Virus record (IMG/VR): IMGVR_UViG_3300028591_000003
Span: 112,444-176,443 of that record
From: a virus
Lineage: Duplodnaviria; Caudoviricetes
Reading direction: 5' to 3' (one strand)
DNA length: 64,000 nucleotides
In this document: positions 33,722 through 62,564 of the stretch, one piece after another
Numbering within the stretch: the stretch's first letter is position 1
Layout of the letters: each line of letters starts with the position of its first letter
Notes under the pieces: generated by a model
What the model was told of the DNA's origin: nothing
Database searches by the model: none
What the model saw: only the letters and a program-made list of their open reading frames with translations
Position numbers and translations under genes: made by a program

Positions 33722-36700
33722 AAGAACATGATTATTTTTTAGAATTAATGTCCAATCCAACTTTTAGTCCAAAAGATTTTTAGTTGGTTGGACTAGATTC
33801 TTCAAATACTGAATTATTAAACAAAGATAAATATAAAAATTCTCAAACTGTTCAAAATTTCGATTTGTTTTAGACAAATGGAGAATTTGATGAAAAAAAA
33901 TTCGACTTAGCCTATGAATAGGCATTATAGCAATATAATGAATTATCAAACTTGACTGAATCTTATAAACCGTTTTATAGAAATGATATATTTGCTCCTG
34001 AAAATTTAAAAAATAAAAATTAGGAATTTAAAATAACTAAAATTGCAAATCCACTTCGTTAGTAGAGAGGTTTTGTAGATTTTGGAATATAGGAAAATCC
34101 AACAAAATCAGTTAGAGAATTAGCAGAAGCTAATGTACAATATGATTATAAAACTGGACAATGGCTAGAAAGTCCTAATGAAAGATGGTGGGATAATTTT
34201 TTTAATCCTAAAGTATTGGCTTAGTGGGATTTTGATGCAGATGAAAATGGTAATCCAACAACCGATAAAGATAAAATAGTATATCATAAAGGAGAAAAGA
34301 AAATAGATCCTATAACTGGAACATATTATTATGAGTCTTTAGGTGATAGAAATATATATGGAAGAGATGTTCTTTCAGGATTTGATACTTTGACTACTGA
34401 TGGTTCTGCTTGGAATGAATATGATTTTTTTGATTCTGATGATATTGAAAAATCTACTTTTGGAAGTTTAAGTAGAACTGTAGCTCAAATAGTTCCAGTA
34501 TTCATACCATATGTCAATACTGCATATATGATAGCTAGAGTAGGACTTGGACTTTCAGAAATACTTCCTACAATAGGAAAAATTTTCTTAGGAAGTGATA
34601 ATGAATTAATGTCTCAAATAGAAGGATGGAATAAAGCTTTTAGTTTCTCCACTTCTGATTCTACACAAGGTTCTGAAGAATTAGGAATAGAGGCTGATCC
34701 GTGGACAATGGAAACAGGATTAAAACTTATTTCTGATGTATTCACTCAATTAGCAGAACAAAGATTTTTATTTAAATATGGAAACGCAATTGCTTCTAGA
34801 ATAAATCCTAAATTATTAGGAGAAGGAAAAGAAGCAGAAAAAGCTAGACGAGCTTATTTAGAATCTCAAGCAGCTTTAGAAGGATTTAATTTAAATGTAC
34901 TTAAAAGAGCTAAATCTAAAGAAGAATTAGATTTAATATTAAAATCAGAATAGGGAATTAAATGGGCAAGAGCCAAAGCAGCTTTAAACGAACGTTTAAA
35001 AGTTGGATAGAATATTGCTAAAAATGCTTCAATGGCGTACATGACAGGAATAACTACTGCAAGTTCTTATGGTGAAGCAAAGTAGCAAGGTGCTACAGAT
35101 TTTGAAGCAGCTGCTTTTGCTATAGGCTATTCTTTAGGCGAATGGCAAATATTAAGAAGTGATATAGGTAAATGGATTCTTCCAGAATTAAAACTAGAAA
35201 AATTTGAAAATTAGAGTATTGCTAAAGCATTAGAATCTGTTACCGACAAAGAGGCAAAAAGTTTAATTAATCAAAAAACTACTAAAGAAAAAAAGAAAAA
35301 TCTTTTTAGAAAAATTGTTGATTTAGGAAAACAAGCTGCTACAGGACATTATGCAGATAGTACTATCACTAATACAGCTAAAATAACTACAGCTGCAGCT
35401 CTTTCTGAAGGAGTAGAAGAAACCTCAGAAGAATTATTACTTGACTTTTCTAAAACTGTATTTAATATTGCTACTGAATTAGGAAGCGGTGCTAAATTTG
35501 ATGATAATTGGAAAGATATGGCTACTCGTTACGGAATGAGTTTTATAGGAGGTGCTATTGGTGGTGGAATAGCTACTGGACTTCCTGGATATAGAGCTGC
35601 CAGACAAAGACAAAAAGACATAATTGAAAGTATAAATAATCCAGACGCAAATACACAAGCATATAGAAAACTTGTAAATAAAGCATTGAATGGACAATTA
35701 GATGAATATAGAGATACTGTTAGAAAAATGAATTTTGCAAAAGAGTCATTATCTGATAGAGAAATAATAAATTCTGATGGGACTATATCTTATGAACCAG
35801 CTAATTCTTACGAAGATAGTTAGGATTATAAAGTTAAACAAATACTTATTAAACAAGCTGATATTATTGAAGATATTTTAAATTCTCATGGAGCAGAATT
35901 TAAATTATCTGACAATCAATTACTCGATGAACTTACTAGAAAACAATTAAGATTTTATAGTTTATTAGGTAGTAATGTTTTAGGAGTATATACTAATGAA
36001 TATTAGAATTATATTACTAAATTAGTTGATGTTGCTGCTAAAGTTGATTAGTTAGAAAAAAGAAAAAACGGAGTTCCTAAAGGAGAATCGGATTCTGCTG
36101 AAAGAGAAGCTAAAAAAGAAAAAGAATAGTGGACAGCAACTGATGAAGCAGAATTAAAGAAACGTAAAGATGAATTAAAGGAAATCCAAGATAGACTTAA
36201 GATGTATCGTGATGGTACAATGGCAAATGAGTTTATTGCTGAAGCATTATTTGAAATGACTGTTCCTATTTCTTCTGTTTATGGACCTACAGGATTAGTC
36301 CAATGGATAGAAGATGTTGAAGGTAAAAAATATGAAGAACTCAATTCTACGGAAGAAGGAAAAGCTAGAATAAAAGAATTAACAAAATAGTGGACAGATG
36401 GAAGTATTGCTAGAAGAGAAATAGTTCATAGAAATTATTAGGTTTTTAAACATAATCAACAAGCATTTAACAATCTTCTTAAAAAATACGAGTAGAATTA
36501 TTTTACTGATAATGAAGAAAATGTAATAAGAAATCTTGAAGAAATATTTTTAGGTGATAGAGGACGAGAAAAATCTTTAACATAGTCTAGAGATATTATA
36601 GGAACTACTGAACTTTATGCATTAGATGGTTTAAGAATAGCTGGAGTAGCTAATTTTGGACTTACTGAAGATATTCTTAATACTTTATTATAGGGAATAA

Positions 36701-39700
36701 AAGGAAAAGTTGATTAGAATACATCTTCCGACTTTGAAAATAAATTAAATTCTTTTAAAGAATCTTTTGAAGAACATTATGGATTTAAAGTACCCTAGAC
36801 TATAGAAGAATATTAGAATTTAACTTCAGAATAGAGGTAGAAGTTAAATGATGATTACAAAGAAACAGTATTACAATGGCAGCCCATTCCAACTAATACT
36901 GAAGAAAATTTTTAGAATATTATAAGAAAAATTTAGGAATAGTTTGTTTAGGAAAAAATTGAAAGTTATGAAGACTTTATATCATAGTTTATTCAAAATG
37001 TTGATGTATAGGATTAGTTAATTAATATATTTAAGTAGGCTAAATATATAACTCCAGCTACAAAATAGTATTTAAAAACATTTATTAACTCAGCAAATGT
37101 AACTAATTAGAAAATTAAAGATAGATTAAATCAAGCAATTAATTCTATTAAATCTTCTCCACTAGAAGAATTATTAAGTCAAATGGTTTATTCTCTAACA
37201 TAGTCTGGATTTGATACTACAGGAATGGTTACAGATTTAGCTTAGTTAATGAATGATTTAGCACAGGGAAGTAACTTAGGAGAATTTTCTTATTCAGAAG
37301 AAGTAGAAAGAAAAATAAATAATACTATTAAATTAATTGATATAGCTGCTGCACATATAAATGCTGCTAAAACTGAATATTATGGAACAATAGGTGATAC
37401 TTTTGGATATAATAGTACAGTAAATGAACTAGCAGAAAAATATCCTCCAGAAACTGAAGAGAAATCTAAAACTAAAAAAGTTGAAAAACTTCCAGAATTA
37501 CAAACTGGAACTGCTGATAGTATGCTTCATGAATTAGCTAAACTTAGAAATGATTTAACTTTTTATAAAAAATTATATGATGCTAATAGTTCGACAAAAC
37601 TTACAGAACATTTAAAACAAGAAGCTAAAATAAATCAAATTTATTATGCTAATATATAGAAACTATCTGTAGAAATTCCTGACGATTGGGGAGAAGAAAA
37701 ATCTGAATTAATTAAAGCTATAAATGATGCTACTACTTTAAAGAATACTAAGGATAAAGAAGAAAAACTTTCTTTAGAAGAGAGAAAAGCTATATTTAAA
37801 GAAAAACTTAGAATAGAAAAAGCAATATATAATCTCTTTTAGAAACATCAAATTAAAGATTTAAATCAATTTAAACAATTATTTAAAGAATTCTTAGATT
37901 TTGATGAGGAAAAAACATCTACTATAAATGTAGATATGAAAAGAGAAGACAATGCCGACTTTATCTGGTATATAGCATCTTTAATAGCAACTGATCCAGA
38001 AGCTGTCTATAAAGAATATATAGAAGCTACTGACGATCCAAGATATACTCCTGTTATAGGTCAAGAAGAAGCAATAAGAAGAGCTTATTCTTATTTGATA
38101 AATCCTAAAACTTTTGAAGAATTTCAAGGATATGTGAATCAAGTTGTCGAAGAATAGGTTACTGCCGAAGGAAAAATTAAAGGATTTGATGTTGCAAATT
38201 ATATATTATCATCAAGACATTTTTTAATTGAAGGTGATCCTGGAAGTGGTAAAACTTCCGCTACTTATAATACTATTGTAAGAATGTTAGCTAAAAATCA
38301 TCCAGAATTATTAGAAGATGTTTGGATAGTTAGTAATTCAAAAGAAAATGCGGCTAATACAGCTAAAGAATTAGGGTTAGAGCATGTTACAACATTATCT
38401 AAAAAACAGTATTTTGAAGAAATTAATGATGGATATTAGAATAGAATAGTAAATGATGAATTTATACTATTAGAAGATGATGTTACGAAAGATAATAAAG
38501 GAATTTTCCATTATAAAAACGAAACTTTAAAGGAAGTAAAAGTTCCAAAACTTATCCTTTTTGATGAGATTTCTTCTTTTTCACAACAAGATTTATTATT
38601 GTCTGATAAATTCTTAAGAAAAAATAATTTATATTCATTAGCTGCTGGAGATTTTAAATAGTTGGGAGTTTCTGGATATATATTAAAAAATGATGGACCA
38701 AAAGATAATAAAGGTAATATTATTAAATATGACAAATATTATGATCCAGAAGATAACAGACCAGTTTTTGTAGGTTTAGGAAATGCTAATTTTATAGGTT
38801 CTTGGAAATTAGGAACCTCTATAAGAAGTAATAATTCTTATAAATCTGGAAATATATCTAAAATAGGATTATAGTTTAATACTATATTTGATAATATGGC
38901 AAAGATAGAAAATGGAGTTTCTCCTATTGTTCTTTCATATTATGAAGATCCTAATAGAGGATTATTTGGAGATAAAATAGAAACAGATATAGATAAAGCT
39001 ATAGAAACTATAAAAATAATGTTAGATACTCTTGCTCCTGATACTGTAAAAATAAATAAAAATGGAGAAAAAGAAATTGTAAAAAATGTAATTAATTTTA
39101 TAACTGATAATCCAGGAAGTGAATTAGCTATTGCTATTAATAATTTATCTAAATCAGAAAAATATAAAGATAGAATAAAAACAGTAACAGCTGGAGCATC
39201 TTAGGGGCAAGAAGGACAATATTATATTATAGATTTACAAAAAACTTTTGGAAGTGCATTAATAGATGCTGCTAATAATCAAAATGAAGGGTTAAGTGAA
39301 GCTACTAAAGCACAAAACTTTATAAAAGGATTTTATACTGCAATATCTAGAGCTAAACAGGGTTCTTTAATATTTGGACATTATGGAAATCCTGGAATGG
39401 ATAATATAAAGATATTTACATCTATTCCACAAGCTAAATATCAAGAAAATAATTTATCTCAATCAGTTAAAGATGCTAATGCTAAAGAGAGAAGAGATAT
39501 AATTAATAGTGCTATAGAAAATAAAGATGCAGCTACTCCTTCTATAAACTGGTCTAATACTGAATAGAAATAGCAAGAAGAACCCGAACAAGAAGAAACG
39601 GTTCCAGATGAAGAAATAGTTTCTAAAGAGGAAGTTCAGAAAAGAAATATTGATCCTCCAGTAGTAATTAAAAATGAAGAAGAAGGAAAATTAAATATCC

Positions 39701-42700
39701 TTATTCATACATTTATGTGTAATGAAACTGGATGTAAAGTAATTGATAGTTCTGGAAATCTTAATGCAACTATGGATCCTATGGAGAATGAGGCTTAGTT
39801 GTAGTTAGGTGATTTTCATGAGGATAGAATTGATAATATTCATGGACTTGTTAAATTATTTGAAAACAGTGGAATTAGACTTCCTTTTGAAACATATGAT
39901 GATGAAGGAAAACTAGTAAGTGGAGTAAAAATTAACAATTAGGGAATTATTACTGAAGGTAAAGAACAGTTAATTACTTTACTAAATCAACTTAGAGAAG
40001 CTGGACGTAATTGTGATGATTATAATACTTTAGTGACTGTAGTACAAAATTTATTAGGAACTGATAAAGCTCTTGGAATAGATTTTATATATGACTAGTA
40101 TTATGAGGATTATAATGGAAATACTAAGGAAGCTTTCGAAAACGATGAAGAATTATCTAAATATAGAGAGCGTTATAAAGGACAAGATGAAAATCTTTCT
40201 GGAATAATTAACGATGATAATGAGGAACCTATAATACGTCAACCTAGAAATGCTGTTATTTCTATGGTAATTACTTTAGAAAATGGCAAAAAATTAGTAA
40301 GAATTCCATTAGCAAAACTAACTTCTCCTTTAACTCTTTTAGGTCAAGAAGAGTTTGAGGAAATAAAAGAAATTTATGATAATGTAGGAGGAAATTTAAC
40401 TAAGTTTAAAAAAGCTATAAAACAAGCTTTAATAAATAAAGAAAATATTCCTCATTTAAAAGAGTTTGCTATGTTACTAGATATTTATCAAGGTACAGCA
40501 TTTAATAATATTGCATATCTTAATAAATTATTTAATGGGACATTGGCGGGATTTGCTAAACCTACAGGAATTACTATTACTAATAAACCTAAAGGTGAAG
40601 AATATCTTCAGAATGAAAAATATTACTATAGAGGAAAATGGGTTAATCTTTCTAAATATAAGAAATTAATGCCTTGGAGAAATGTTAGTCAAATAATGGT
40701 TTGTGTTGATAAAGATCCTATAAAGAAGAATAATAAACAAATTACTCCAGGTAAACCTTTTGTATTAGTAACTGATGATCCCTTATTGCAGGGTGTTAGT
40801 TCTGAAGTATTATTAAAAGAATATGTTAAACAAATAAAAGATTCTACAGCTAAACCTAGAATTAAATTAGTTGAAGTAATTCCTCCTTCATTAGAGACTG
40901 AACGTTATTTATTTAATCTTTATACAGCTTTAAATACTCATAAGGATAAAAATAAAGAAGTTGATAAAGATTTAGGAACTAAAAATACTGCTTTTAGATT
41001 ATTATCTTAGGCTATATTAAAATAGGATAGTCCTTTCATAACTGAATATGAAAAATTTATTAAGGATAATATTAAGGATAAAGTAGTAAAAATAAACGGA
41101 TAGGATGTAAATTTATATAAGAAAACTGTAGCAGAATTCAAAGCATTACAAGAATTAGTAAAAGCTTTGTTAGATTATGAAAAGAAAAATAATACACATT
41201 CTTTATATAATTTATTAAATAGTCCTATCACTTCTTTAGATAAGAATAATTCAGAAATAAAGAGTATTTTAGATTTACTAAAATATAATGTTGAAGGAGA
41301 ATCTAAACCAAGATTTTTATAGCCTACTAATAATGATAAATTAACTCTTAGACATCTTTTTTAGAGAAAATTAAATGAAATGATATTTAATACTGCTCTA
41401 GGCAGTTCTGAAAAAGTTGTTAGAAAAAATGGAGATAATATAGAATATTTAAAACCAGAAATAGAATAGAGGGTTAAATCATTTATTGATACAATTGAAT
41501 GGAAAGAAGTTCAATTACATACTAGAGTAAAAAATGGAAGTAATTTTGATCCTATTGAAATTGACGATGAAACTAATTTAAATGTTGCTTTAGTTGAAAC
41601 TAATTATGGTAATGATTATGCTATAGGTAAAAACGGAGGAGAATATCAAATCAATGGAAAAATTGATTCTACACAATATTCATTAGATATTGTTCCAATG
41701 CTAAAATGGATTCTTACAGGAGCTTTAGGTAGAGATTCTGAAGTTATTGATACTAATATGGATAATGAAAATATATTTGCAGTTACTGACAAAGCGATGC
41801 AAATTAAGAAAGGTAATAATGTTCATTATTATGAAGAAACTCCATCTGAAAGAGAAACCGAAGAAGAAAAGTTAGCTAAAAAATAGTTAGAATAGGATAC
41901 TAAAAAATTGAGGGAAATTACTCCACGAGATTTTTCTAAAAAAGGTTTAGGAAAGAAAAATGATTTTATTGATAAATTTGCTGAACTTGATGAAGAGTCT
42001 CGTAAAAAAGTTTTGGAAGATCCGAGAGAATTTATATATTAGACTTTAGGTATTTTATGTTCAAAATAGGATGATGGAAAATATAAATTTTTTACAAGTG
42101 AAGAAATTAGAAAAGCTCAAAATGTTAAATTTAATTCTGATGGTACTACTTCATTTACTTTAAATGGAGACCCTTGGATTTTAGATAGTAATGAGGCTAA
42201 ATTAGATGATAGTAAGTTTATTATACCTGAAGGAGCAGTAAAAATTATAAATAACTCCATCTATAGTTCAAATGCATATTCTGCTAAATTGATAGACCAT
42301 GGAAACAATAATTTTGCTATTGAAATATATGATAGAAATGGCAATAGAATAGCTGTAGGAGATAGTAGTATATCTGAATATAATACTCTAACTGGAAGTA
42401 ATTTACCTGAACCTCAATAGAATATAATAAAATCTAAATATAAAGTAGGAGATATTATTGATATATATACATCAGAAGGAGAATCTCAAGGAGAAGATGG
42501 ACAATGGACTATATTTGAAATAATAGATCGTCCTAAATATGGACCTGTTTATAGACTTAGAGGAAACAAAGGTCAAACATTAAATCTTGCTATAGAATAG
42601 GTAGATAGTAATTCTAATAAATATAGATTATATAATCCTTTTACAGGTTTTGAAGAAAGAAATCCTGATGTAATACAATCTTTAATTAATGTTGATAAAC

Positions 42701-43038
42701 AAGGAGATAAAAGTATGTTGTATGGATTTATATTCCCTATGAATGATACTAGTAATGCTGACGTTCTAGCTCTTAATTTAATGTTTAAACTTAAATTACC
42801 ATTCTGTTATCAGGCGAAGTTAAATCCAAATATTCCTATTAAAGGTACTGATAAAACTTTTGCTTAGTGGAAATAGGAATTATTAAGTACTTCAGAAGGA
42901 GTTAAATTATTAGAATCTGTTTAGACAGAAATGCAAAAATACTTATCAGAGAAAGATATTATCGAAAAAGATAATACAGATAATAAATATGTAGAAGATG
43001 GAAAAAAATACATATCTTGTAGTAATGCAAAATTTTAA
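33718..43038 (+). CDS. Giant virion protein with SF1 helicase domain (about 3106 aa, TAG=Gln)
   Basis: Nine + strand ORF fragments in one frame. GDPGSGKT, LILFDE, GDFK(Q)L, S(Q)GQE and YTAISRAK motifs. Confidence 0.85.
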
Positions 43039-43049
43039 TTGAAAATTTT

Positions 43050-46000
43050 ATGGGAAAAAATTGTAGATTAGGAGACGAATTAAATGAATTCATATCCGAT
43101 ATGAATAAAATTATAATAAATTCTTTTAATTCATTGGATCCTGTTAATTATTTTAAATCAGAGTTATCTAAATTAATTCCTAAATATGAAAATAGTTTAG
43201 ATGATTTCAAAGAGTCTGTACAAGAATATTTAGATGATGAATATGGACAATATGCAATTACATTATTAACATTTGATAATTAGGAATTAAATAGTATTGC
43301 ACAAGATATTATTAATTCTGTCGATCACGTGTTTGATGATATAAAGCAAGAATCAGAACAAAATCAAAGTTCTCCCAAAGATAAAATCGGGAGAACTTTA
43401 AATACTGATTTTAAAGAAAAAACACAAATTAGATAGTAGTTTTTAGATAAATATTTTAAATATAATTCTTCAAGTAAATTACTTTTTCAAAAGTGGTTTA
43501 GAAATTCTGCGATTCGTTCTTTATTTATTGTAGAGGATAAAAATAATAAATATTTAGCGGATTCTGGTGAAGAAATAAATGAATCTATTTAGAATTTTAG
43601 ATAGAGATTATTGAATGATATTATAGAAGTACTTAAAATACGTACTAATTCTTAGACTATAGAACAATTTGAATTTGCTTATAAAATTAATTCTAATGAA
43701 GCAATAAAAAATTTTCTTGATGAAATATTTAATGATGAAAATGTTTTTCCTAAAATATTAATTGCAAGATTACCAGAAATTAATTCTGATAGTTTAACAC
43801 AAAGTGGAAAGATATTATTAAAGGGATTTTAGGCTTACGTTGCTTTAAAACATTTTGATGAATTAATGTCATAGACTTTTTAGAAGGCTATTTCAATTAA
43901 AAATTTTGGAGAATATAATTTAAATAATTCTGATAAATATTCAATAAAAACTGCTGATAGGGTTATTCACCAATGGCGTGATGATGATGTTGATGCAGAT
44001 GAAACTGAAGAATTAGGTAGTTTACCAATGCTTTTTGTTTCATCTCTATAGGTACATGATAAATCAGGAAGGGCTACAGATGAAACACTAGAATTTTCTA
44101 ATGTAAAAGTAGCTATTGGACATTTAATGAAAATATTAGATGTTCAATCTGGATCTGATTTTTTAGGAAATCCTTTTCCGAAAGATATAATTGATGATAA
44201 GATAACTAGTATTATAGAAAATGAATTTGCTTCTTTATACAACGGAAAAGTTGAAAGTGGTTAGGCTGTAAATTCTTTTAGTAAAAGATATGGAAGATTA
44301 AACTAGAAAGAAAATGAACAAAAAACAGTAAACTATTTAAGATGGATTCTTGATACTTATGTAAAAGGAAAAACATTTAAATAGGTTCTTGCAGCTGCTA
44401 AACGCTATCCTGAAATATTAATGCCTATAATATTTAGACTTACTCAACCAGTATATTAGATAGGACTTGATGGAAAGAAAAGTGATATTGATATAAATAA
44501 ATATTCTAGTATATTTAGTAAATAGAGTAAAACAGAAGAAACTATAAGGTCATTATATTATGAAATGTATTCTCCAGAAAGTTATTCAGTTTTTTCTATG
44601 AATACTGGAGAAAAAGGTTTTGATCCAAATAATAATTCTATATTTCAACATGTTAATACAATGTTTTTAAATATAGAAAATAAACAACAATTAGAGTATC
44701 TTAAAGATGAAGAAAAAGGTATAATTACTGTAAATCTCGGAGATAAAGTTGGAAATACTAGATTAAAACTATTTCAGAGAGCATTAGAAACTAAATATGA
44801 TAAACTAAATCCACTTAGTTAGACTAATAGTAGTGGTGAAGAACAATTTTAGGAGTTTTCTATAATTGATAATCTTGAAAAAGAAGAAAATAACGAATCT
44901 CCTTCTGGAAAGTCTATTACTATAAAAACTAAAGATGGAAAACAAATTGTAGTAGATTCTGATTTAACTTATAAAGTTTTAGATGAAAATGGAAAATCTT
45001 TTCCTATAACTGAATAGAATTTAAGACATTTTATTCCAATATTTAATGAAGTATTAGATTTAGATTTTAACGAAGCTTTTATTAATATATTAAGAACCTA
45101 GAAAGGATAGTTAAAAGAAGTATTAGGATTAGTATCTAGAATGTTATACAATTTCTAGGTTAGTAAACATATGATTAATACTAGTAGTAGTAAATATGAT
45201 AATGTTATTAAGAGTTATTATACATTAAAAAATGCTAATGATAAATATCCTACTGTCGCTTATTCTTCAGTTCAACCTAGAATTATTTCTAATTTTGATT
45301 ATAAAGGTATATTATCAAAAATATCTAAAGTTAAAGATATTTTAGAAGGGTATTCAGAAATAAATACTGTATAGGATGGAGAAAGAAAACAAGTTTCTAC
45401 TTTAGGATTGTCTTCATTATTATCTAAATATAATGAAATTATAGAAAATTATGGAAAAAATCCAGATTCTCCTATAAAACATTTCTCTATATACGGAATG
45501 TATGAAGGTGCTGAATTAATGCGTGATTATGCAGAGCCTGGAAATAATAAACAAGCTAAAAAATTTACAGAAGAAGAATTAGTGACTGCATCCTTCTTAT
45601 ATGATATGTATGGAGATTTAATGGAACTCAACGAAGAGGATGGAACACTTGTTGAAAAAGGTGGAGGTATCTTAAGAGTAATGGGTCCTGTTGTATCTGA
45701 TAAAGGTAATCTTATTAAATTAAAATATAATTGGGATTCTCCTATAAAAGAAAAATACAATGCTTTATTAAGACCTGAAGATCCAAATATTAAACTTCGA
45801 TTAAGAGATTTAACTGTAAATGATTTAAAAACTATTATTAAAGAAGAATTTGGAGAATATTATCAAAATGTTCTTAATTATGTACAATCTCAATATGGGG
45901 TTTTAAATAAATCAGCAATAATTTGGGCACATCCCGCAATGGGAAAATCTTGGTCAGTAGAAAATGGTAAATACAAAGACCAATTAATTGATTGGGATGT

Positions 46001-49000
46001 AGAATTTAATAAAAAAAGAGATGCTTGGATAGCAGAAAAATCTAATACTGAAATAGGAAGTAAAGAATTTAACAAAGTTAAAAAACAATATTTAACTGAT
46101 TCTGTAAAACATCCAGAAAAATACTAGGATTTTATAGAATTTTATACACAAGAATGGAATAGAGTTAAAAATAAAGCACGTTTAGAAGGAAAAATATTAG
46201 TTGCTTCTCCACATATATTATTAAAATTGTTTCCACAAGATTTTGATAAAATTATTACAATGGATGATGAAACATTTATCCAAAGAAATATGGAAAGAGG
46301 AGGCACTGAAAAAGACTCTATATCTTTAAAACAAGATTTAAATGCAACATTATCTCAATTACAAGAATAGAATAAAATAATTACTGATAATAGATATTTA
46401 GAGGAAATATTAGAAGAAGGTTCATTAAGAACTAGTTATGTTGATATGGCTATAGATTCTTTAGGATTAAATTATCCTAAAGGATATGGTTTTGATTATC
46501 TTTCATCATTTGCTAGATTTAACGAAGTATTTGGAAAAGATGCTCAAAAAGTTCTAAGAGAAGCTATTTATTTAGCACAACGAGCCGGAGAAGAAATCGA
46601 AATAATAGATTAGGTTCATTATATTGTCAAAGATGGGCAATTACAAAATAATCCTTCTTTAATACATCAACTTCAAGTATTTGGAAAACTTGACGGAGGA
46701 GAATAGTATGAAGATTTCTGGAAAAGAAAAGAGGATTAGTTATTTGTAGATTTCTTACAAACAGAAACTGAACTTCAAGTTAAAGAAGGAGTAAATGATA
46801 AAAAGGGAATTGCTATTCAGACAGCTCTACAAAAGAATCAAGGATGGATTAAGGGAGAAAATATAGCAGTTGCTAAAGTTTCAGAAGATGATAGAAGTTT
46901 ATTAATTGCTACTAAGGATGATTTTAAGAATTGGTATCCTTATAAATCTTTATTAAATTGGTATGGTAAAGAAATTCCATCTGAATTAAATATTGATAGC
47001 CCTGATGCTAATTTATAGGCTATAATGGAAGCTATAGATTAGTATAGTATTGTTAGAAAATTATCTGAAGAAGAAACTCTTGATAAAATTATAGAGTCTA
47101 AACCAGATAAATGGAAATCTAATACAAAAGGAGAATATCTTTTATAGTAGGCTTTTATATTATATTCTATAACAAGACGGAAATATAATAGAGATATTCC
47201 TGCCGAAAAATTACAGGAGGATTTTAATAAAAAGATTGAAAAAGAGTTTACTAAAGATGGAAAACTTGATAAAAAGACTCTTGTTGATTATATAAATAAA
47301 AAGGAAACTATTAATGATATTGAAGCTTTGATGGATCCAATGTTATTAGGTCCAGATGGTGATAATTCTTATTTAAATCCTTTTATAGAATCTATTGAAA
47401 AACCAGTACATAATATAGAATTAAATCCAGAATTTGTAAAACATAATCTATATGATTTCTTATTAAGTGAAGAATTTGTTCTCTCAACTACAGGAACTCA
47501 TGTTTCTTAGCCTGGAAAATCTTCTAATATTACTGAAAGAGAAGCTGAACAATTTGGTAATGCTGTAAAGAGATATGTTGCTTATACTGCTTCTAAACAT
47601 AGAGAAGAAGCAAATGCTTTAAATGGAATTACTGAAGATATAAATCTTGCTATTATAGAAGATGATAAGGATTTTTCATTTAACTTTGTAGGAGAATCGG
47701 GAACTGATAAACCATTTGATGGTGCTAGTTTCTATAATATTTTAATGAATTATCTTGATAATAATTCTCTTGGTGGAGATGCAATGGGTGTTGATAAAAA
47801 ACCTTTTGCACATTATCAAGGAACAAAATCTGGAATTGGATTTATTCTTAAAACTGCTGGATTTGCTCATACTAATGATAGAATTAGAAATAGTAAATTT
47901 GATGCTCGCTTAAATAAACAAATGAATGATATTAAATGGGATTCTCCGAAGGTCCAAAAATTAATAAATCCTAATTGGAAACCTGGAGATCCAGTAGTTA
48001 CTCCTAATTGGACTGTTGATTATTTTGGAAATAGAATTAATTATGGAGAATGGTTTGCTTATAGACAAAATCAAGATGGAACTTGGTCTTGGTATAAACA
48101 TAGAGTAAATGGAAATAATATTGAAATGATTAAAGTGCTTTCCAATGGAGAAATTCAAAATAATCAAGAATGGGTTAAATATCCTAAATCCATAAATTCA
48201 AATTATGATTTATGGGAAGCCTTCGGAGGAGCTTATTCTGGACATTTATAGAAAAATTCTGATGGAACAGAAACTCTTGTTTATGAAAATGATGAAAGTT
48301 CTATTTTAAGACTTCTAAAAGCAGTAAATAATGTAGGAATTAGAAAAACTATAAATGGAAAACCTATTAAGAAAGTATTTGATTAGAATGGAGTAAATTA
48401 GTATCTTAAAAAAGCTTGCATTCACATAGTTGCTACCGGTGGTGCTGTTAAATATGGTGGAGCTAATATTAATCCTAAAGAGGCTTATTATAATGATGAT
48501 TATCATCTTACACATATGGTAATAAAAAGCTATGATTTAGGAGAACAACTTGATGCTGAACATTCTGCAGAAGATGGTCATGTATCACTAATGACTTAGG
48601 TTATTAATGCTTTAGGAGCAAGAGGATATACTTCTCAAGAAGCTATGTAGTGTTATGTTGCCTTATCTAATATGGCTGAATATATTACTGGAGATATTTT
48701 AAAATCTATGGAAACAGACGATCCAGAACTTATTGATAAAGTAATGGAAAAGAGTATATATAAAACTCTTTTACAAGCTTCTGATAATGACGGAGATATG
48801 TTAAATGCTTTAGCAGCTTCTTTATTAGACAGAAAAAATCCTTCTTCTAAAAATATATCGGAAATAGCAAAAAATTTTCCAATAAGTCATCCTGCTGTAT
48901 TTAATAAAATATTATCTAGTTTAGCATCTTAGTTAGAAAAAGGTATTAAACTTAAATTCGAAGGAGGAATGTTTGTATTAAATCCCTCAAATAGAAGAAT

Positions 49001-52000
49001 GACTGTTATTAATGGACATTTATCTGGATATTATGATACACACAATAATGAATGGTTACAGTTAGAAGAAGAAAGTAAAAATAATCCTATAACTTCTATA
49101 GCTGATATTAAATTAGGATATAATTATAGAGATTCTGAAACATACGAATTACACATAATAAATAAACCTACTGATATATATGCTATCGGAGAACTTATAA
49201 ATCAAGGACACACTTTTTATGAAACTTTTATTGATAAGGATAATCAACCATTGGGAAGAGATTTAACAACTTATCAATTAGTTTTTTCAGATATTAGTGG
49301 TAATAGATATAGTTCTTGGGAATTAGATTCTGTTAAAATGCTACAATATCTTCAAATTGATAAAAAAGGTAATGAAATCGGATTTAAAATTCCATCTAGA
49401 GAAACCGAAGAAGATAGAATAGCATTTATGGTTAGACTACAAGCTAATTGGGATACTCTAACTGATTTATAGAAAGCTTTTAATATATTTAAAAATAAAT
49501 AGTTATAGTAGATTGATCCTAAAAAAGGAGGAGTTGATTATGATTTATTATCTTTATTAAGAACTGATTAGTAGGAAGAAATAGAATAGTTACTATTACC
49601 AGAAGAAGTTCGATAGTTTGGAGTTAAAAATTATTTGACTAGACAATTTCAAAGAGAATTAAATGCTATTAGTTCTGGAATTGAAACAGAAGTACAAATA
49701 AACGGTAGAAAGATAAAAGTTGATAAGACTAAAATAGAAGTTACTCCGTTTGGTATAATTCTCCCTCCTATATATAAAACTCAATTTGGATTAAGAGAAT
49801 AGGATAATTTATCCGATATAGAAAAAGATAAAATGTTCTTTGTTAGAAGATAGTTATAGAATTGGAAAACTAAAATAGCTAACTAGAATACATATGATTT
49901 AGAATTAAAAACATTAAATGGAGAACATATTTATTTAGCTCGATTAACTAACGATTTTATTCCTAATAATTAGATATAGTAGGAAGTTTAGTTAGAATTT
50001 CCAACTAACTTTGAATTGGATGGAGAAGTATTATATAGAATAACTCCTTTAGGAAAACGTTTATATTCTGTTCCCTATACTACTGATGAAACAGGAAATA
50101 TAATTCCTGACATAAGAGTATTTAAAGATAAAGCTACAGGAACTGAAGTAATTTATTCCAGAAATTTAACACATTTCTTAGATGAATTTAATTATACTGG
50201 AATAGTTTTTTCACAGAGAGTTCCATTTACAAAAGAGGATTATGAAGAAGAATATGAACAAGCTCTTTTAACTTATAAATTGGATTTATTAAAATAGATT
50301 AATTCTAGTAATAATAAATCTGCTGTGAGAAAAATAAATAGTCTTGCAAAATTATTTTCTGATATAATTAATAATAATGTATCTGAAGATTTAAGAAGTG
50401 ATTCCTATGATATTGATTATTTAGCTAGAATAGCTCCAAAGACATTGATAAATTTAATGGACGGAGATTATGATTTTACAAATAAAAAGATTCAATAGTT
50501 GGAAGATGATTTATCTCATTCAGAATTAACCATAGAAAATTTATTATCTAGAAATAAATTCTTTACAGGATTAATAAATTCTGGAATAGAAGTACATACG
50601 TCTTTCTTAGAATCATTAGAATCTGTTGTATCAAGAACTCCTGCTCAATCTCAACAATCTTTTATGGCAATGAGAATAGAAGCTTTCGGATTAGAAAATA
50701 CTAATTCAGCTTATGTATCTAGAGATCAGTTATGGTTACAAGGTTCTGACTATGACATTGATAAAATCTCTTTATTAGGTCTTAAATTTAATCATGGTAA
50801 ATTAGTGGTTTGGAGTCCTTTCTTTAGTTTAAAAACTAGAGAAGCATTTTTAGCATCTAAAAAATTACCATTCCCTACTAATAAAGAATTACCAATGTTA
50901 CCTATTGATAAATAGAGTAAAATTCCTTATAATGTATTAAGAAATAACTTAATTGTTACTAATCCTGAAGATTCAGAAACTGGAGAAATGACTATCGAAA
51001 CAGCTTCTGGAAGTGGTTTAATTATTAGACAAATTCCTGGAATATTAGGAAATAAAGATAGTATAGAAATTACTGCAAAAAATTGGGATAATGCTTCAAA
51101 ATTAGATTAGTATATATTAATCCATAGAGCAATGGAAGCTCTAGAAAAATTTGATGGACAAATATTCTTTACTAATTTTAATATTTTCTTTACTACAAGA
51201 CTTGCATTAGGTTTATCTGAAGATGGATTTTTAACTGAAGATAAAGATATTGAATAGGACTTTAAGGATTTTAATGAAGCTATTCTCGGAGATTATATCA
51301 ATTATAATGGAATAAAACAAATTCAAGATAATATATTAGAATTTGCTCCTAACCTTGGATTATTAATACAAGCATATAATGATTTAGGATATATCCCAGA
51401 AAATTAGAATAATATATTTATTAAAACCTTAATTGATATACACAATACTTCCATTTAGAATAAATCATTAATAGATGCTCTTTATAACTTTATTTCTATA
51501 AAAGTAAAAGATATATCAGCTGATCCTGCTAATAGAATACAAGGACAATCCCCAATTGATCCAGAAATGGATAAAGTAAAAGATTTAGTTAATGATTCTG
51601 AAACTTACCCAGAAAATTAGAAATTAGCTGGATTTATAAAGAAATTTGATAGAGGTTCTATGTATTCTAAAATTAAAATGCTTACGCTAACTCTTGGAGG
51701 TAAAGAAGGAGTAGGTATTGAAGCTTCTTCATTGAAGAATTTCGAACTATCTAGTTAGTATAATTATGAAACTCTAGATAAAGGAACAGAGGAGGATTAG
51801 GAAGATTTATTATTTAACGTTAAAATTAACGGAAAAACTTATGAAATCTTAGCTAATTCGAGAGCTAGAAACATGGATACTGTGAAAAGTAGAAGAGTTA
51901 GAGAAGTTCTTAAAAGAGTAAATCAATATCAAGATACATACTTAACTAAATCTGGATTACTTTCATTAAGTACTGATAACGCTAAAGATCCTAAGTTACC

Positions 52001-54563
52001 ACAGCTTAATTGTGGTCCTAAAATGATGTCATTATATGATGCAGGAGTAATGTTAGGAATGTCAGTAAATGAATTAGCTCATTTAATTTTAACAGATACT
52101 GGAATACTTATAAATAAGATTGCTCAAAGTAATATATTTACTGGAAAGCAAGAACAAGGAAGAGTTATTGATGTAATTAGATACTTATAGAGAGCACCTC
52201 AAATTAATCTTACTGATTCTCAGTTAAGTGTTTTATAGCCTTTATTTGAAAAACTCGGAATACTAAAATATACAATAAATCCTAAGACTAAGCAAAAAGA
52301 GTATGAAGAATTAAATAAAACTAGATTAGGAAATATTCTTTTAAATAAATCTCTCAGAGCACAACTTAAAGAAGTATTTAGATTTTTATAGAGTCCTAAT
52401 GAAGAGTATAGTTTATTAGAGTTTAAAAAGAATAGAGTTGTTGATAATATTATATCTTCTCTTTATGGGAGTAAAGAATATAAAGGATTTTCTAATAGAG
52501 CAGAACGCTATTTTAATGAACTTGAATCTTTAGATAAGAGATCTGAAGAATAGGAAAAAACTTATCAAGAATTATTAAAAAAGAAAAATGAAAAAACTCA
52601 AATATTGGAAGAAATAAAACTCTGGGAAAATTATAAAAATGGAATACTTCCAAATGCTTCTATTAAAATAGGAGAAAAGAAAGTTGGTTAGTAGATAAAC
52701 GACTTAGACAATACTTTAAATAATTATACTAAAGATGATTTTAAATCTGAGTTAAAAAGAATTCAAGGTAATATATTTTCTGGAAGATAGTATTTAGGTG
52801 CTATTAAAAATATATATAAATGGTTAAATTATCAAGATATAATTGAAGAAACTGTCAAAGATGAAGAAGGTCAAAAACATAGAGTATTATATCAACTATT
52901 GAAATTAGCTGAAATTGCAGAAGAACAATCTACTTTAAGACCTTTAATGAAACTTAACCAAGGTCTTGAAAATAAAGTAGAAGATTCAATTAAATTTTAT
53001 ACTGATTTTAGTAAAATTATTTCTGATAGAATAGAAATATTAGGAAAAGAGGAAGCTTTAAAAAGAGGTAATACTTCTGAATTATTAGCCAAATTAAAAT
53101 AGATGAATGATGATTTAAGAACATCTGGAGTTATTAATTCTAAAGAATATTATTATATAGATTTACATACATTTTTATATAATCCTGAATATAATAAATT
53201 AGTTAAAGATATCTATGGAAATATAAAATGTACTACTAATATATTTAAAGTCATTGATAGTATTCCTAATTATAGAAAATATTTGAGATTGGCAGATGCT
53301 TGTACTACAATTTCTTATAAAAAATCTAGACACTATAAAATTCTAAAATATATTGAAGATAGAGTTATTCCAGAATTTGGGGTTAGAAAGACCAAATGGT
53401 TGGAACAAATGAGAAAAAATGCTACTTCATATATAAATAGATAGAAAAATAAAGAATTTTTAATATCATAGAATATAGTATTGAAAATTCCTAGTTTTAA
53501 AATTGAAAATGGAAAATTAATCTATTTATCTAATAAACCAGAAACTATTCAATTAGGATTAAATAAAGAAAATGATTTAAAATTTAAACAATATATTGAA
53601 TTTATATTATTTCCTAAATTAAAAAAGAACTATCCTGGTAATGCTTTCTTATCTTATTTAGGATATAGAGTATTTGATTTTAATGATGACCATAACTCTT
53701 CTATCGATTTGTCTAAGATTAAAACTAATAATATGGATAATCCTTCTGATTTAGCTCAATTCAATCTCGCTAAATTAGATATGTTAGAATTAGATAAGGA
53801 AGATATTAAAAAATTGTTTTATTATAATCTTATTGCTTATAATAACTAGTCTGGGTAGTCTTCACTAACAATAATGTTTGATGATATTATTAGAAATAAT
53901 AGTATTGATACTATTGTTGATTATAATAAATTTATAACAGAATGGGATAAATAGCCTATTAGTACTTTAAATATGATTGAAACTATGAAAGCTATTGCTC
54001 CAGTACTTAAATTATATGAAGTAAATCCTGGATTAAGAATTAAATATTTCTATGTTCAGAATCCTGAAGATAAGAAAACATATTTATGTTATAAATTAAC
54101 TAAGCAAAATAATTCTTATGATGAAGATGATCCAAATGAATTTAATAATTATGGATCAGATGAATCAGAGAAAAAAGTTATTAAATCCTTTAGAAAATCT
54201 ATAGAAGATGCTGGATACGGTATATTTGGATTACCTAAATAGGAAATTAAAGGTAAAGAAGTTTAGATGCTAGAATTTGGTAAAAAACATAAATATAAAA
54301 TAAGTAAAACTACTAATTTTGATAATATCCAAATATAGGTTGATGATGATTGGAAAAGTATAGAAGAAATTTTAGATATAGCTGAGAGTAAAGGATTTTC
54401 TATTGGTGATGATGGAGATTTAATTAAAGGTAAATCTGAAAAAGGAATAACTCCAACAAAATTATTTAATGGAAAAGCTAAAGATATTGAAAATAATCTA
54501 AAACTAATTTAGTATAGATTAGATACTATATTAGACGATGATCCAAACGGATGTAAAAAATAA
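43050..54563 (+). CDS. Virion-packaged DNA-dependent RNA polymerase (about 3837 aa, TAG=Gln)
   Basis: Fifteen ORF fragments in one frame. Catalytic-type GSDYDIDK at 50742-50765 preceded by SRTPAQ, plus FDG and TDNAKD motifs. Confidence 0.9.
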
Positions 54564-54565
54564 CA

Positions 54566-55636
54566 ATGAATTATTGTGAAATTAAAAATTCTTAGAAAGG
54601 CCAGACATTAAAGGAAATGTCTGGTCTTTCAGAATTTTCCTCTTATTCTTTTATAAGGGGTTTTGAAGAAGAAAATGGAAGAATGCCTGAATTAGATGAA
54701 ATTCCTGGAGCTAATTCAGAGCCTTATTTAGATAAATAGTTAAAAATAAAATAGATAGGAAATACTAGATATACTACAATTAAAAAACTTTAGGAATTAG
54801 GATTGAATCAATCTATAGAAGAACTTAATCCTAAATTAAATCAAGAATATTCTGACTTAGAAATTCATCTAAATTAGATAGGAGATTCAGTCACTATAGA
54901 AACATTACATCGTCCTTCTGAATATGATGACATTGAAGAATATGAAAGAGATATTGATTTTGATGGAACTACTGAAAGTAATGCTGTAATTTTAGGAAAT
55001 GCTCTTGATAGATTACAAAAATATTATGGAATATCTATGATTCCTATTACTACTCAATAGTTATCTGAAGATCCTCAATTTCAAAATCTTCCAATATTTC
55101 AAGCAGAAGCATTCATATTTAATGGAAATATTTATATAAATACGGATAAAGCTACAATAGACGCTCCTATACACGAATAGCTTCACTTATTTTTAGGTTC
55201 AATTAGATATAATCATCCTAATTTATATTTTCAATTAGTAAGTTCTGTCGAAAATCTTTCAGATTTTTAGGATAGAATTAAACAATATCCAAATAGGACT
55301 ATGTCAGATATTCAAGAAGAAATATTTGTAGAAGAACTTGCTAAATTTTTAGTGAAAGAGCCAAGTGTTTTTGATGAAGTAGATCCTAGTATTATGAATT
55401 TTGTAATGTACAATATTAAAAGAGATATAGATTCAATAGTATTTGGAAAAAGAAGTGTAAAAACACTAGAAGATCCTTTTCAGTATTCTTTACTTTAGTT
55501 AGGACAACAACTAGATTCTAGTAATTTTGAAGTGAATAATCCTGGTATTATAAATGATGCAGCAATTCATAGAATAATGGCTAATACTAAAGAAGAACTA
55601 ATGAAAAATAACGAATTAATTGAAACTTGCTCATGA
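54566..55636 (+). CDS. Zincin-like metalloprotease-domain protein (356 aa, TAG=Gln)
   Basis: APIHE(Q)LH at 55163-55186 with downstream EEIFVE. ATG 54566 to TGA 55634-55636. Confidence 0.8.
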
Positions 55637-58600
55637 CTTGTAGATATGAATATAATGGACTTACTTTTGAGTCCGAATTAGAATTAGACCATTATTTACT
55701 TTTTAATAAGAATACTAGTAAAAATATATTTGGAGATGCGGTCTTTAAACTATCCCCAGAAAATGATAAAGATGAAAAAATAGAATGGGGAAGTGATGAA
55801 TAGAAAATAATAGGTAAAAAACTTAAGGATAGTTCTAATGAATATAATAGAGCTGTAGGAACTAAGCAAGTTACTGATTCTAAGGGGGAAGAAGGAGAAC
55901 CTTCTGATTTAGACAATGTAAGAGCTAGAGGAAGATATAAATCTATTACTGATATAATTCATAATTTATGGTCTCCTAAAAATGGTGAATTACATCGAGT
56001 TTTTCCTGAATTTGAACCAGATAATTATTGGAATGGAACTCCTGCTAATCCTGTTGGTCAACTACAATTATATAGAGAAGGACGATTTGATCATGAAAAT
56101 GTAATAGATTAGATTCCCTTTGTATAGGATTTATTAACTCCACAAGGAGACTCTTTTGCTCCTGTTACTGATGAAACTACTCTTCGAAAAATTCGTGAAA
56201 GAATGGAACTTGTTTGGAAACAACAAGCCTTATGTGGAGATTTAGTACATAATTTAATGTCTGACTTCTTTAAAGCAAAAACTGAAGACGGAAGACGTTT
56301 TATTAATTTAAAAGGACAAGAACTTGTAAAAGAACTTGAAAAGAAAATTCAAGAATCTTTTTATAATGAAACTAGAAAATTTTGCAATCGAGAAATAGTA
56401 AAAACTACTGCTGAAGCAGCTGAAAAACTATTATCTGAAATTAGAAAGGATGAAAATTATGGACCAGATTGTATAATTTATTCTGAAAAATCATTATTAG
56501 GACAAGGATATTCTGGAGAAACTGATACTTTTCCAGTTGTTGGTAGAATTGACTTATTAGTAGTATCTAAAACTGGAAAAATGGGAGTACTAGATTTTAA
56601 ATGTTCTCCTAAAGAATATTCAGAATTTAATGAAGAGAAAGATAAAACTAAATATGATCCAGCTAAAATATTAACTTTTAAATACCAACTAGCTGCTTAT
56701 AGAAGATTACTTCAAAATATCACTGGAAGTGATAAACAAATTGATTTATCTGTTATTCCATTAAAATTTGAGAATTTCAGATGGGATAAAAATAAAGTAG
56801 CTTTTGATTCTATATCATTTATTAGGGATCAACCTATACAAAAATTATCTAATTCTACCGGAGGAGATAATTTATCTAATACAATAGAAAATAATCTTGA
56901 TTAGATTTTTCCAAGAAATAGAGCTTCTCAAAATATAGTAACTGGAAAATTATTAGTAAAAGTAGCTGAAAATACTAAAAAAATATTTAAAGTTAAAAAT
57001 GCTAATAAAACATTATCTGATGAAGAAATTAAAGAATTAATTAAAGAAAAAGGTGGAATAAAAAAGAATAAAATTACCCAAAAATGGGAATTTAAAGAGG
57101 ATAATAAAACAATATATAGTGAATCAGGAAATAAAACTAAAGAAGAAGCTGAAATAGCTATATTTAATAAAATAAAAACTTAGCATGAATATAGAGATAA
57201 TTATGTTTAGAATACTACTGAAAGTTTAAGAAAAGATATTAAAGAATATGAAGAAACTGGAAAAGAACCAGACTTTCAAAAAAAATATTCAACAAAAAAA
57301 TCTAATAATTAGAAGGATCCTATTTGGATTCAAAAGAAATTTAAAAAATATTTAAATCAAAATAGATGGAAATTAATTTCAGATGCTAATTTTAATCCAA
57401 TATTTGATGAATTAGGTATTTTAATGTTTGAAAATCAAGTAACTCACTTAGTAGATGTTATAAAAATTTCTGATTATTATGATCCTACTTAGAAAATAAG
57501 ATTTGCTACAAAAGATAGAACTACTATATTAGGATCTTTTTTGCCTGATTCTGTAATTTAGTCTGATAGTAACAACCAAGTACTTGAAGGACGTGGAGGT
57601 AACATGGAATTAATGGAAACTATGATTACTTTAAATGAAATTTCTGGATTCTTTAATGATAAAGGTGTTGGAAATATTGAAGTAATAAGTCCCAGAGCAC
57701 AAAAAGGATTAACTGCTACAAACGAACAATTACTTTATAATTTTAAAAGACTTTGTGAATTAGGAAAAATAAAAAATAATTTTAGGATTTCTAACCAAGA
57801 AGGAACTATTAAAATGGTTGACAGAATTAGTAGTTGTAGAGAATTATTTAGTGAAATCTAGTAGACAGCTTATGATGAAGGTGGATTAGGAAAAATTGCT
57901 AAAACAATGAAAGATAAAATTATATCTTGTATTAGTGATTTTGACTCATTTGGAGAAAATCCAAATATATTAAGACAAAAATTAATAGATTTGGATAAAT
58001 AGTTAACGGGAAATGGAAATGATTTTGAAGGATACCAAAATTTAAATAGAGAAACTTCTGAAATTCCTGACGAAAACGATAATCCAGAATATCTTTTACA
58101 TAGACAAATTCTTTACGCTATATCTCAATTATCTGGAGTAAATTTATTATAGCAAATCGAAGATCATGCTCAATTACAATTAGTGTCTGAAGGAATTCAA
58201 TTTAAAGGAATATATGGAAATATTACAGATAATCCTGGAACAATGCAAAGTAGAACTCTTAACACATTTACTGATTAGGTAACAATAGCATATCAAAATA
58301 CTAGGGATAATATTATAGCTTTTAATTAGGAACTAAGGAAACGTGTAGAAGCTCTTAAAAAAGCTAAAGGATTTGGGCTAATTCAATAGTATGGAATTGG
58401 AAACCAAGTGGAATCTTTATATAAGGATATGTATGATAAAGAAGAATAGGATGATTTATTATTTTTAAATCCATGGGATAATTCTACTGAACTTACTGAT
58501 GAGGAAAGAGATTTTCTTAAATTTGCTTTGCTTAAAATTAACGATAACAGATTTAAAGATTTCGATCCGTCTAGAATAGAAGAGGAAATTAAATTGGACC

Positions 58601-60687
58601 CTAAAAAATATCTAAGGGTTCCTCTGGTTAAAGGGGATTTATCTTCTGAAGTAGCAGTAAGAGATGGATGGTTAAATTTTATCAGAGCAAGATTTGCTAT
58701 GTTATCTCCTAAAAAACTATTTGCTCGTCTAAAGGAGAGATATGATAAAGAAGCTAACGGAATGTGGAGTTAGGAAAAATATTAGGCTGAAGTATTAGAT
58801 AGAGGACAATTTTGGCAAGCTCTTAATGATTTTGATGCTACCGAATCCGATGAAGAATATAGATTAGAACTTTTAGGGGATGAAAATCTAGGCGGAAAAG
58901 CGTATTTCGAACATAACCTTGAAACATTATTATTAAAACATACTTCTGCATACAAAATGGCAGAAGAATTAAATAATATATTTCCTGTTCTTAGAGCTTT
59001 AACTCTCCATTTAAATCTTCAGGGTTCTATTTTAAATGAATCCTTTCAACATGATATGGAATATATTCTTAATTATGTAAAAAATAGAATTCATAATAGA
59101 AGTATTGAAAATAGAGAAAATGTTGTTGAAGCTGTAAGTGCTGATGTTATAAAGAAAATGATGTCAACTGCTTCCAAATTATCATTAGCATTTAATCCAA
59201 AACAATGGTATCAATTTATTGATGGATTATGGAAAGATATAACTTTATTTTTTAAATATTATAATGATGATGATAATCCATTTACTAAGGAAGGATTAAT
59301 TAAAGGTTGGAAAAAGGTTATTACTGAAGATTTAGCTCATTTAGGTAATAATTTTACTATGTCAGAATTATTAAATCAACAATATGGATTTAATGATATG
59401 GATACTAATAGTTATATAGATAGAATTAGAACTGATAATACTGGATTATTGTATCATTTCTGGAATGTAGGATTTAGATTTGCATCTAGACCTGACTTTT
59501 ATAATAGAATGACTCTTTTTTATGCTCAAATGTATAAAGATGGAAGTTTAGATGCTCATAAAATAGTTGATGGCAAATTAGTTTATGATTGGACTTAGGA
59601 TAAAAGATTTAACATATTTGCTAAATATAAAGGAAAAGACTCTGATGTCCCTGCTTCAGAAATGAAAAAATATTTAGAATAGAAATCAATGTATATAACT
59701 TTAGCTAGACAATTAGTTCAAGAAGGTACGGAATATTCTGATAAAAATTTATTTGAATTAGATTTGAATAATCCAAAACCTCTTCCTAAAGCTTATTCTA
59801 ATAGAGATTCTGAAAGTTTTAAAGCTGTTTCAGATAGAATTTATGGATACTATTCACATGAAAAAAGGTCTATGATTCATTCGTATCATGTGGGTTCTTT
59901 ATTTATGCAAATGAATACTTATTGGTCTGCTAAAAAGAATCAGTATGCTCAAGTTCGTTCATATACTTAGGAAGGAAAATGGGAAGATTATACTGAAATT
60001 GGAGCTAATAATGAAGAAATTAAATACTGTTGGGCTGAAGATGAAGATGGTAATTTAATTCCAAAAAGAATTGAAAAACCGGAAGATGATACTCATGTTC
60101 CAGTAAAAGTATGGAAAGGAAGGCCTCAAGAAGGTATTTTTGTTACTGCGTGTGAATTAATATCAGCAATTAGGGGAAAATCAGAATTAACTTCTGAATC
60201 TGGTTTAAGTGCTGCTTGGAATATTTTATATGGAAATAATCCTAATATAGATCCAGAAATAAGAAGGCTTTATTAGGCTAATATACATTAGTTAATCGCT
60301 GATTTATTAATTTGGTTATTAGTAGGAAATCTTATGATAGGCTCTCTGTAGGAACAAGTTAAAGAACATATTAAAACTACAGGAAATACTAAATTAAGTA
60401 ATGCTTTAGAAAACACCTTTATGAGTTTGGGAACTAATATATTAGAAATGTCTACAACAGATGCTAATTTCAAAGAATCTATTTTTGGTAGAGGACGAGA
60501 TTGGACACCTTTTGCTATAAAATCTACAGATAGATTATCTTAGAATATAGTAAGATTAGGTACAGGTAATCAAGATTTAGTTGATTTTATAGTAAAATCT
60601 TTCGGTGCTGCTAAAAATACTCAACCTTTATGGGATTATGTAAAATTAGAAACGACTGGAAGAAAAATAGGTCAAAAACCAGAATAA
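55633..60687 (+). CDS. Large virion protein with PD-(D/E)xK nuclease-like domain (about 1684 aa, TAG=Gln)
   Basis: GDLVH...SEK...GRIDLLVV...VLDFK...YQLAAY. Five ORF fragments share the frame. Confidence 0.82.
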
Positions 60688-62489: not shown

Positions 62490-62564
62490 ATTAATTAAAT
62501 TTAATTTGTGATACTATTATAATAACTGATCCTATAAATATCCCAAATATTATCCAAGGTACAT

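Follow-up and report, generated by a model that had tools for sequence, protein, structure and literature searches.

Crassviruses are the most abundant phages of the human gut. Their narrow tail has to deliver megadaltons of protein, and both the means and the order of this delivery are open questions (Bayfield et al., 2023; PMC10172136). Mass spectrometry of the crAss001 virion detected gp45, gp46, gp47, gp49 and gp50, and the same study argued that the cargo proteins partly unfold for passage through the tail, that packing and mutual interactions probably determine the sequence in which they are extruded, and that intermolecular disulfides are present in the tail and in the gp57 dimer; it makes no mention of terminal cysteines in the cargo (PMC10172136). 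The closest published case of a bond between protein ends comes from cyanopodophage A4, whose pre-ejectosome was solved by cryo-electron microscopy (cryo-EM) and contains a disulfide between Cys1715 of gp27 (1717 aa) and Cys5 of gp26 (PNAS, 2025; PMC12002296). The ejection proteins gp71-gp73 of the N4-like phage DEV, which include the virion RNA polymerase (RNAP), have essentially no Cys (PMC11445570). Here we analyse a block of four genes in the final 64 kb (hereafter the window) of the 176,443 bp virus record IMGVR_UViG_3300028591_000003, which has direct terminal repeats and is rated complete. Wherever two consecutively encoded proteins of this block meet, both of the facing ends carry a Cys, and we consider that this pattern points to a chain of proteins linked head to tail. 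We found no paper on Crassvirales describing such a rule, so the statement of a first-pass annotation of this DNA that no such system had been described stands, as far as we found, for that order and has to give way to the published A4 bond outside it.

Terminal cysteines in the window

When TAG is read as Gln, open reading frame (ORF) calling of the window (28% GC) yields four long, tightly packed genes on the + strand, which encode in order a helicase-like protein, an RNAP, a small zincin-like protein and a protein with a nuclease domain (Table 1); reading the same region with table 11 gives only short ORFs. The ATG of the nuclease gene overlaps the TGA stop of the small-protein gene, and the nuclease gene closes the + strand block, the genes downstream being on the opposite strand. 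All six junction-facing ends have a Cys at most six residues from the end, and neither of the two outer ends does, the final Cys of the nuclease lying 178 residues before its C-terminus.

The four proteins contain 27 Cys in 8,983 aa (0.30%), compared with 1.2% in 79 other proteins from this phage and six relatives that were used as controls, and in the small protein the only two Cys, Cys4 and Cys355, are both terminal. Among the control proteins, a Cys at positions 2-7 was found in 1/79 and a Cys in the last 12 residues in 15/79. The probability of finding a Cys no more than six residues from each of the six ends is about 2e-9 at the window-wide Cys frequency and about 3e-11 at the Cys frequency of the four proteins themselves, and the terminal-Cys pattern is not due to chance. 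The first-pass annotation had listed Cys at these six ends, outer ends devoid of Cys and a low overall Cys content; every coordinate was confirmed with TAG as Gln, and the other two observations are borne out by the figures above.

Table 1. Genes of the proposed chain and their junction-facing Cys codons (window coordinates)
Feature	Position	Strand	Basis
First member of the proposed chain: helicase-like, 3106 aa, 7 Cys, the earliest at residue 2001	33718..43038	+	ORF with TAG=Q
Second member: two-barrel RNA polymerase (RNAP), 3837 aa, 8 Cys	43050..54563	+	ORF, motif, structural match
Third member: zincin-like small protein, 356 aa, 2 Cys, HExxH 203-207, EE 251-252	54566..55636	+	ORF, alignment
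Fourth and last member: PD-(D/E)XK nuclease domain, 1684 aa, 10 Cys	55633..60687	+	ORF, PF12705
TGT, Cys 6 residues from the helicase-like C-end (...YISCSNAKF-stop)	43018..43020	+
TGT, RNAP Cys5 (MGKNC...)	43062..43064	+
TGT, RNAP Cys 3 residues from the C-end (...NGCKK-stop), C3835	54552..54554	+
TGT, small protein Cys4 (MNYC...)	54575..54577	+
TGC, small protein Cys 2 residues from the C-end (...IETCS-stop), C355	55628..55630	+
TGT, nuclease Cys3 (MTC...)	55639..55641	+

Conservation across relatives and cultured crassviruses

Both terminal Cys of the RNAP are kept in 76/76 full-length homologues (25-100% identity), one within residues 3-6 and the other 1-4 residues from the C-terminus. Each of 63 full-length helicase-like homologues has a Cys 1-12 residues from its C-end; an N-end Cys occurs in 0/63, with no Cys before residue 51. 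For the small protein we compared 240 homologues (335-800 aa, 28-97% identical), 235 of which have a Cys at most nine residues from the start and 239 a Cys at most three residues from the end, the exceptions being fragments or miscalled starts inside a conserved EYQTL motif. Exactly two Cys are present in 120 of the 240, and in alignment its terminal Cys show the same invariance as the catalytic HExxH residues. Cys3 of the nuclease is invariant in 36 N-terminal sequences.

Gene order and the terminal-Cys rule are both maintained in seven long context loci and, among 80 IMG/VR loci read with code 11, TAG=Q or TGA=W, in nearly every one. Locus L037 was left out of this comparison since it is not cleanly readable under any code, and L048 has one in-frame stop within the RNAP. 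The seeming exceptions L039-L044 and L057 are cases of non-ATG starts in which the Cys is present, the small protein of this lineage apparently starting at a non-ATG codon (...VANCLIK...; L039:6957-7046). Conservation in relatives, with pairing by gene adjacency, was the test that the first-pass annotation had set for its own proposal, and these counts agree with it.

The same rule is followed in cultured crassviruses. In crAss001, gp47 (2341 aa) has its sole Cys at -3 (negative positions being counted from the C-terminus), gp50 (2412 aa) has Cys5, a Cys at -9 and one internal Cys, and gp49 (1349 aa) has its sole Cys at position 5; gp47 is encoded convergently to gp50-gp49 and yet obeys the rule. 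In the crAss002 protein gp32 (2020 aa) the sole Cys lies at -2. In crAss002 gp33, an internal Met followed by SC lies 32 codons after the annotated start (L089:10918-11190; MN917146.1 about 51072-51344), and a terminator-like hairpin with a T run is located between gp32 and this Met. The MSC conforms to the M-x-C rule, and from these features the true start of gp33 is probably MSC, with the annotated start placed 32 codons too far upstream.

These data bear on whether the pattern could reflect a signal in the nucleotides of the junction, such as translational coupling or an RNA motif, rather than in the proteins. The sequence TTGTAG does occur at three of the six window sites, and the junctions are tight or overlapping; however, the Cys codon is always in frame and lies 1 to 12 codons from the stop or start, and other tight junctions in the window do not have the pattern. 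Across relatives the terminal Cys are encoded by either TGT or TGC, at variable distances from the start or stop, which argues for selection on the residue. The convergent arrangement of crAss001 gp47 and gp50, between which the rule is nevertheless kept, speaks against any nucleotide-level junction signal to the point of excluding it. With plain chance at a probability of about 1e-9 or less, we give next to no weight to either explanation.

Fusions, splits and insertions

Natural gene fusions, splits and insertions show how the cysteines behave when the junctions themselves change. The RNAP+small fusion P0341 (4272 aa, L006) is free of Cys from residue 3695 to 3989; its N-end Cys3 and its C-terminal Cys are retained and the following protein begins MAC. 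The small+nuclease fusions P0329 (2006 aa, L007) and P0347 (1931 aa) likewise have a junction without Cys, and keep an N-end Cys4 with no Cys at the C-end. Overall, Cys is absent at the fused junction in 3/4 fused forms.

The reverse is seen where a junction has been created. The helicase-like gene is split in L004, whose lineage has an RNAP cluster of 1187 members, and here the first half (1540 aa) has its sole Cys at -5 and the second half begins MQSNC (Cys5). In loci L073-L083 (L073:4992-5993; code 11) an extra protein of 333 aa is encoded between the RNAP and a 549-aa small protein, giving five members; its only two Cys are those at positions 6 and -2, and no similarity between this protein and the other members was detected. 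Long forms of the small protein (773, 790, 1022 and 1352 aa) also have exactly two Cys each, both terminal. A Cys pair is thus present where two modules lack a peptide bond and gone where they are bonded, with one partial exception (P0316, below). The check suggested in the first-pass annotation, whether fusions lose and splits gain the pair, turned out in favour of its proposal in three of the four fusions and in the L004 split, with P0316 as the one partial exception, and the L073-L083 insertion agrees.

Apparently truncated RNAPs ending ...LQGSDY were considered as exceptions to the rule and rejected, since an intron with a LAGLIDADG gene interrupts them. The RNAP gene is interrupted at its catalytic motif (...LQGSD/Y..., the slash marking the break) by an insert of about 1 kb at L007:5408-6112 and also in L009, L033, L039 and L084. 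In four of these five loci the insert codes for a protein of some 234 aa, L009 showing only a gap of roughly 440 nt; a LAGLIDADG_2 Pfam match for the insert protein is recorded for L007 only. The insert resembles a homing intron located at the active site, and the database proteins of 2246-2574 aa that terminate in ...QLWLQGSDY represent 5' exons of such intron-interrupted RNAPs.

Identity of the four proteins

The RNAP carries the motif GSDYDID (GSDxDxD), whose three Asp residues (D2567, D2569, D2571) do not vary among 31 diverse homologues; C5 and C3835 are invariant in the same alignment. An AlphaFold2 (AF2) model of the core (residues 1454-2614; predicted local distance difference test, pLDDT, 75) has as its best structural match 6VR4_A, the virion RNAP of the crAss-like phage phi14:2 (Z 14.7, root-mean-square deviation 5.8 A, 415 residues aligned), followed by QDE-1 (Z 8.5), P23-45 gp96 (Z 7.8) and cellular beta-prime (about Z 7). 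Foldseek on its own ranked 6VR4 second for this model, with a non-significant E-value. The modelled fold of the catalytic core resembles that of the virion-packaged two-barrel RNAP 6VR4. No match to the RNAP was found in Pfam, PHROGs or PDB sequences (phmmer and a 7-sequence profile), and the alignment of RNAP N-termini was too divergent to serve as a search query.

In the small protein, the only columns invariant in 118 homologues are C4, H203, E204, H207, E251, E252, N340 and C355, which include the zincin hallmark of HExxH with a downstream acidic third ligand. Its AF2 model has a pLDDT of 93. There was no match in Pfam or PHROGs, and Foldseek against the PDB found none; in a VIA-wide structural comparison the best score was Z 4.4, and the zincin PPEP-2 reached only Z 3.2. 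We call the protein zincin-like because HExxH and EE are invariant but no fold match is recognisable. A search for related loci with the small protein alone gave no match.

The nuclease matches PF12705 over residues 199-369 (E 1.4e-8; 35.4 bits, cut-off 22), and D307 and K345 are invariant. In the first protein, residues 1496-1649 are helicase-like through weak, sub-threshold matches to AAA_19 (22.5 bits, cut-off 25.1) and AAA_30 (19.7 bits, cut-off 27), and PF13604/PF13245 are precomputed on many of its homologues. Of the labels given in the first-pass annotation, RNAP is backed by 6VR4 and GSDxDxD, the PDDEXK nuclease by a match above the cut-off and the zincin by its invariant HExxH, while the helicase P-loop remains weak. 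A tblastn search against named phages returned three records only, all unannotated, and none of the 14 window proteins searched had a match in PHROGs.

In-frame TAG codons are found in most + strand (late) genes of the window, up to 81 per gene, and the - strand genes at 61217-63431 have zero. No tRNA gene was found in the window, so any suppressor tRNA must sit elsewhere in the 176-kb genome.

A probable head-to-tail chain of cargo proteins

Our data suggest that the four proteins form the RNAP cargo block of a TAG-recoded, crAss-like gut phage and that their consecutive ends are most likely joined by head-to-tail intermolecular disulfides, a reading that we hold with fair, not high, confidence. 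By analogy, the four proteins appear to be packaged in the virion: their genes close the + strand late block, the RNAP core resembles 6VR4 in fold, and gp47, gp49 and gp50 of crAss001 were detected by mass spectrometry. In the assembled particle, the C-terminal Cys of each protein would bond with the N-terminal Cys of the next-encoded one to give a single thread, helicase-like to RNAP to zincin-like to nuclease, of 8,983 residues and about 1 MDa. Such a tether would hold the proteins at 1:1 stoichiometry and in a set order as they travel, partly unfolded, down the tail, after which thiols of the host cytoplasm would separate them. Head-to-tail pairing explains why the first protein has no N-end Cys, why the last has no C-end Cys and why the small+nuclease fusions have an N-end Cys only. 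Intramolecular N-to-C closure was rejected on an argument of parity, because the first protein has a C-end Cys only and the last an N-end Cys only, also in the fusions; homotypic pairing would likewise leave these facts unexplained.

As for the nature of the link, a disulfide is favoured because the A4 bond was seen by cryo-EM and because crAss001 virions contain intermolecular disulfides; on these analogies we consider a disulfide likely, with a metal clasp as the main alternative. In the latter, consecutive proteins would still form a head-to-tail chain but be held by Zn, Fe or another non-disulfide clasp, which the evidence for pairing and co-variation would fit equally and which would suit an anaerobic habitat and a reducing cytoplasm. 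In the small protein, the residue two places ahead of the C-terminal Cys is also often acidic or an amide (consensus LxExC). Against this, each end offers one Cys with no conserved His or second Cys nearby, the only solved example of such a geometry, in A4, is a disulfide, and crAss001 virions do contain disulfides, so we regard a metal clasp as unlikely. A complex prediction using database homologues (small protein with the last 400 RNAP residues) gave a median of 0.29 against a mark of 0.32 and is counted neither for nor against.

Several points weigh against a disulfide-linked chain. Both hosts and habitat are anaerobic, and particles are assembled in a cytoplasm that is reducing. The terminal-Cys bond is one that we infer, and it has been seen in no crassvirus cargo protein, while the disulfides of crAss001 could in principle have formed during aerobic purification. 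A thioredoxin search of the 176-kb genome found none; a search for an Erv-type oxidase gave no match in the genome nor in control genomes, and is hence uninformative. The four proteins have no PHROG match, so that their packaging is argued by analogy. The other RNAP+small fusion, P0316, retains a single Cys, located 19 residues ahead of the fused domain. Finally, the nuclease of the L039 lineage has an unpaired Cys at -9 (L039:12800-12846; also L040-L044 and L057). Downstream of this nuclease there is only a 62-aa CxxC protein, with no obvious Cys partner.

This unpaired Cys would also fit a reading in which the terminal Cys do not pair with each other at all, each one instead anchoring its protein to the portal, to the capsid interior or to another copy of that protein, or acting as a signal for packaging or processing. 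In favour of this reading, the tail disulfides of crAss001 do involve other structural proteins. However, separate anchoring leaves unexplained why an N-end Cys occurs in none of the 63 homologues of the first protein and why the last has no C-end Cys, and it gives no reason for the joint loss of Cys at fused junctions and their joint gain at split or inserted ones. We therefore judge it quite improbable.

It is possible, though doubtful, that Crassvirales in general stitch their whole injected enzyme set, the RNAP included, into one disulfide thread of about 1 MDa, in which gene order would be thread order and exit order, the reducing cytoplasm would be the release switch, and peptide bonds and Cys-Cys clasps would be evolutionarily interchangeable.

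Implications

A conserved end-to-end tether would supply a concrete mechanism for the order and stoichiometry of protein delivery, would account for the free fusing and splitting of the giant genes, and would extend a bond seen once, in a cyanophage, to a general principle. For annotation, the rule marks true protein ends, corrects start codons, separates intron-split from truly split genes and shows which proteins are members of the cargo set. The window offers a proposed four-member chain with a free-standing zincin-like link in a lineage that, with no PHROG match, has no detectable sequence similarity to cultured phages, and relatives of its block include clear examples of gain by split (L004) and by insertion (L073).

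Two further + strand proteins of the window have a Cys near an end and neighbours without a matching Cys: a 148-aa protein (14127-14573) with Cys9 and a Cys as its very last residue, and a 427-aa protein (22995-24278) whose sole Cys lies 5 residues from the end. By analogy with the crAss001 tail, these may be further sites of inter-protein disulfides.

Comparison with known systems

The low internal Cys content of the chain proteins is consistent with the suppression of Cys in N4-like ejection proteins. Internal Cys are strongly suppressed in the giant ejected proteins of both, but the N4-like proteins have Cys-free ends as well, whereas the block described here keeps those that face a junction. 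The two proteins encoded directly upstream of the block (27417-33721), one of 927 aa that lacks Cys altogether and one of 1174 aa with a single Cys, have no terminal Cys; they resemble the Cys-free ejection proteins of N4-like phages and lie outside the chain.

Clostridial neurotoxins and other AB toxins are used here as a working analogy only, in that a single interchain disulfide keeps two polypeptides joined as they cross a narrow channel and is then reduced in the cytosol of the target cell, releasing them. The proteins are unrelated to those of the window, their chains arise by nicking of one precursor, and the bond is proven; the clostridial neurotoxins are introduced as two-chain AB toxins, the chains held by one disulfide, in the review cited (PMC6899712).

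Among crassviruses, the block is similar to crAss001 gp47-gp50-gp49, crAss002 gp32-gp33 and phi14:2 gp66 (6VR4) in consisting of giant, Cys-poor proteins, and it shares the terminal-Cys rule with crAss001 and crAss002. There is no PHROG or PDB sequence match between them, and the window differs from the cultured phages in having four genes on one strand, a free-standing zincin-like protein and TAG recoding.

The closest likeness is to A4, in which a Cys three residues from the C-end of gp27 is bonded to Cys5 of the next-encoded protein, which matches the arrangement at ...NGCKK / MNYC and at the remaining junctions of the window. In A4 there is a single link, it belongs to a T7-like core stack where it is described as stabilising a layered assembly, and the bond itself has been seen. 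In the window there would be three consecutive links (four in some relatives) between unrelated proteins that include an RNAP, and the proposed bonds follow a pattern of cysteines conserved across the order.

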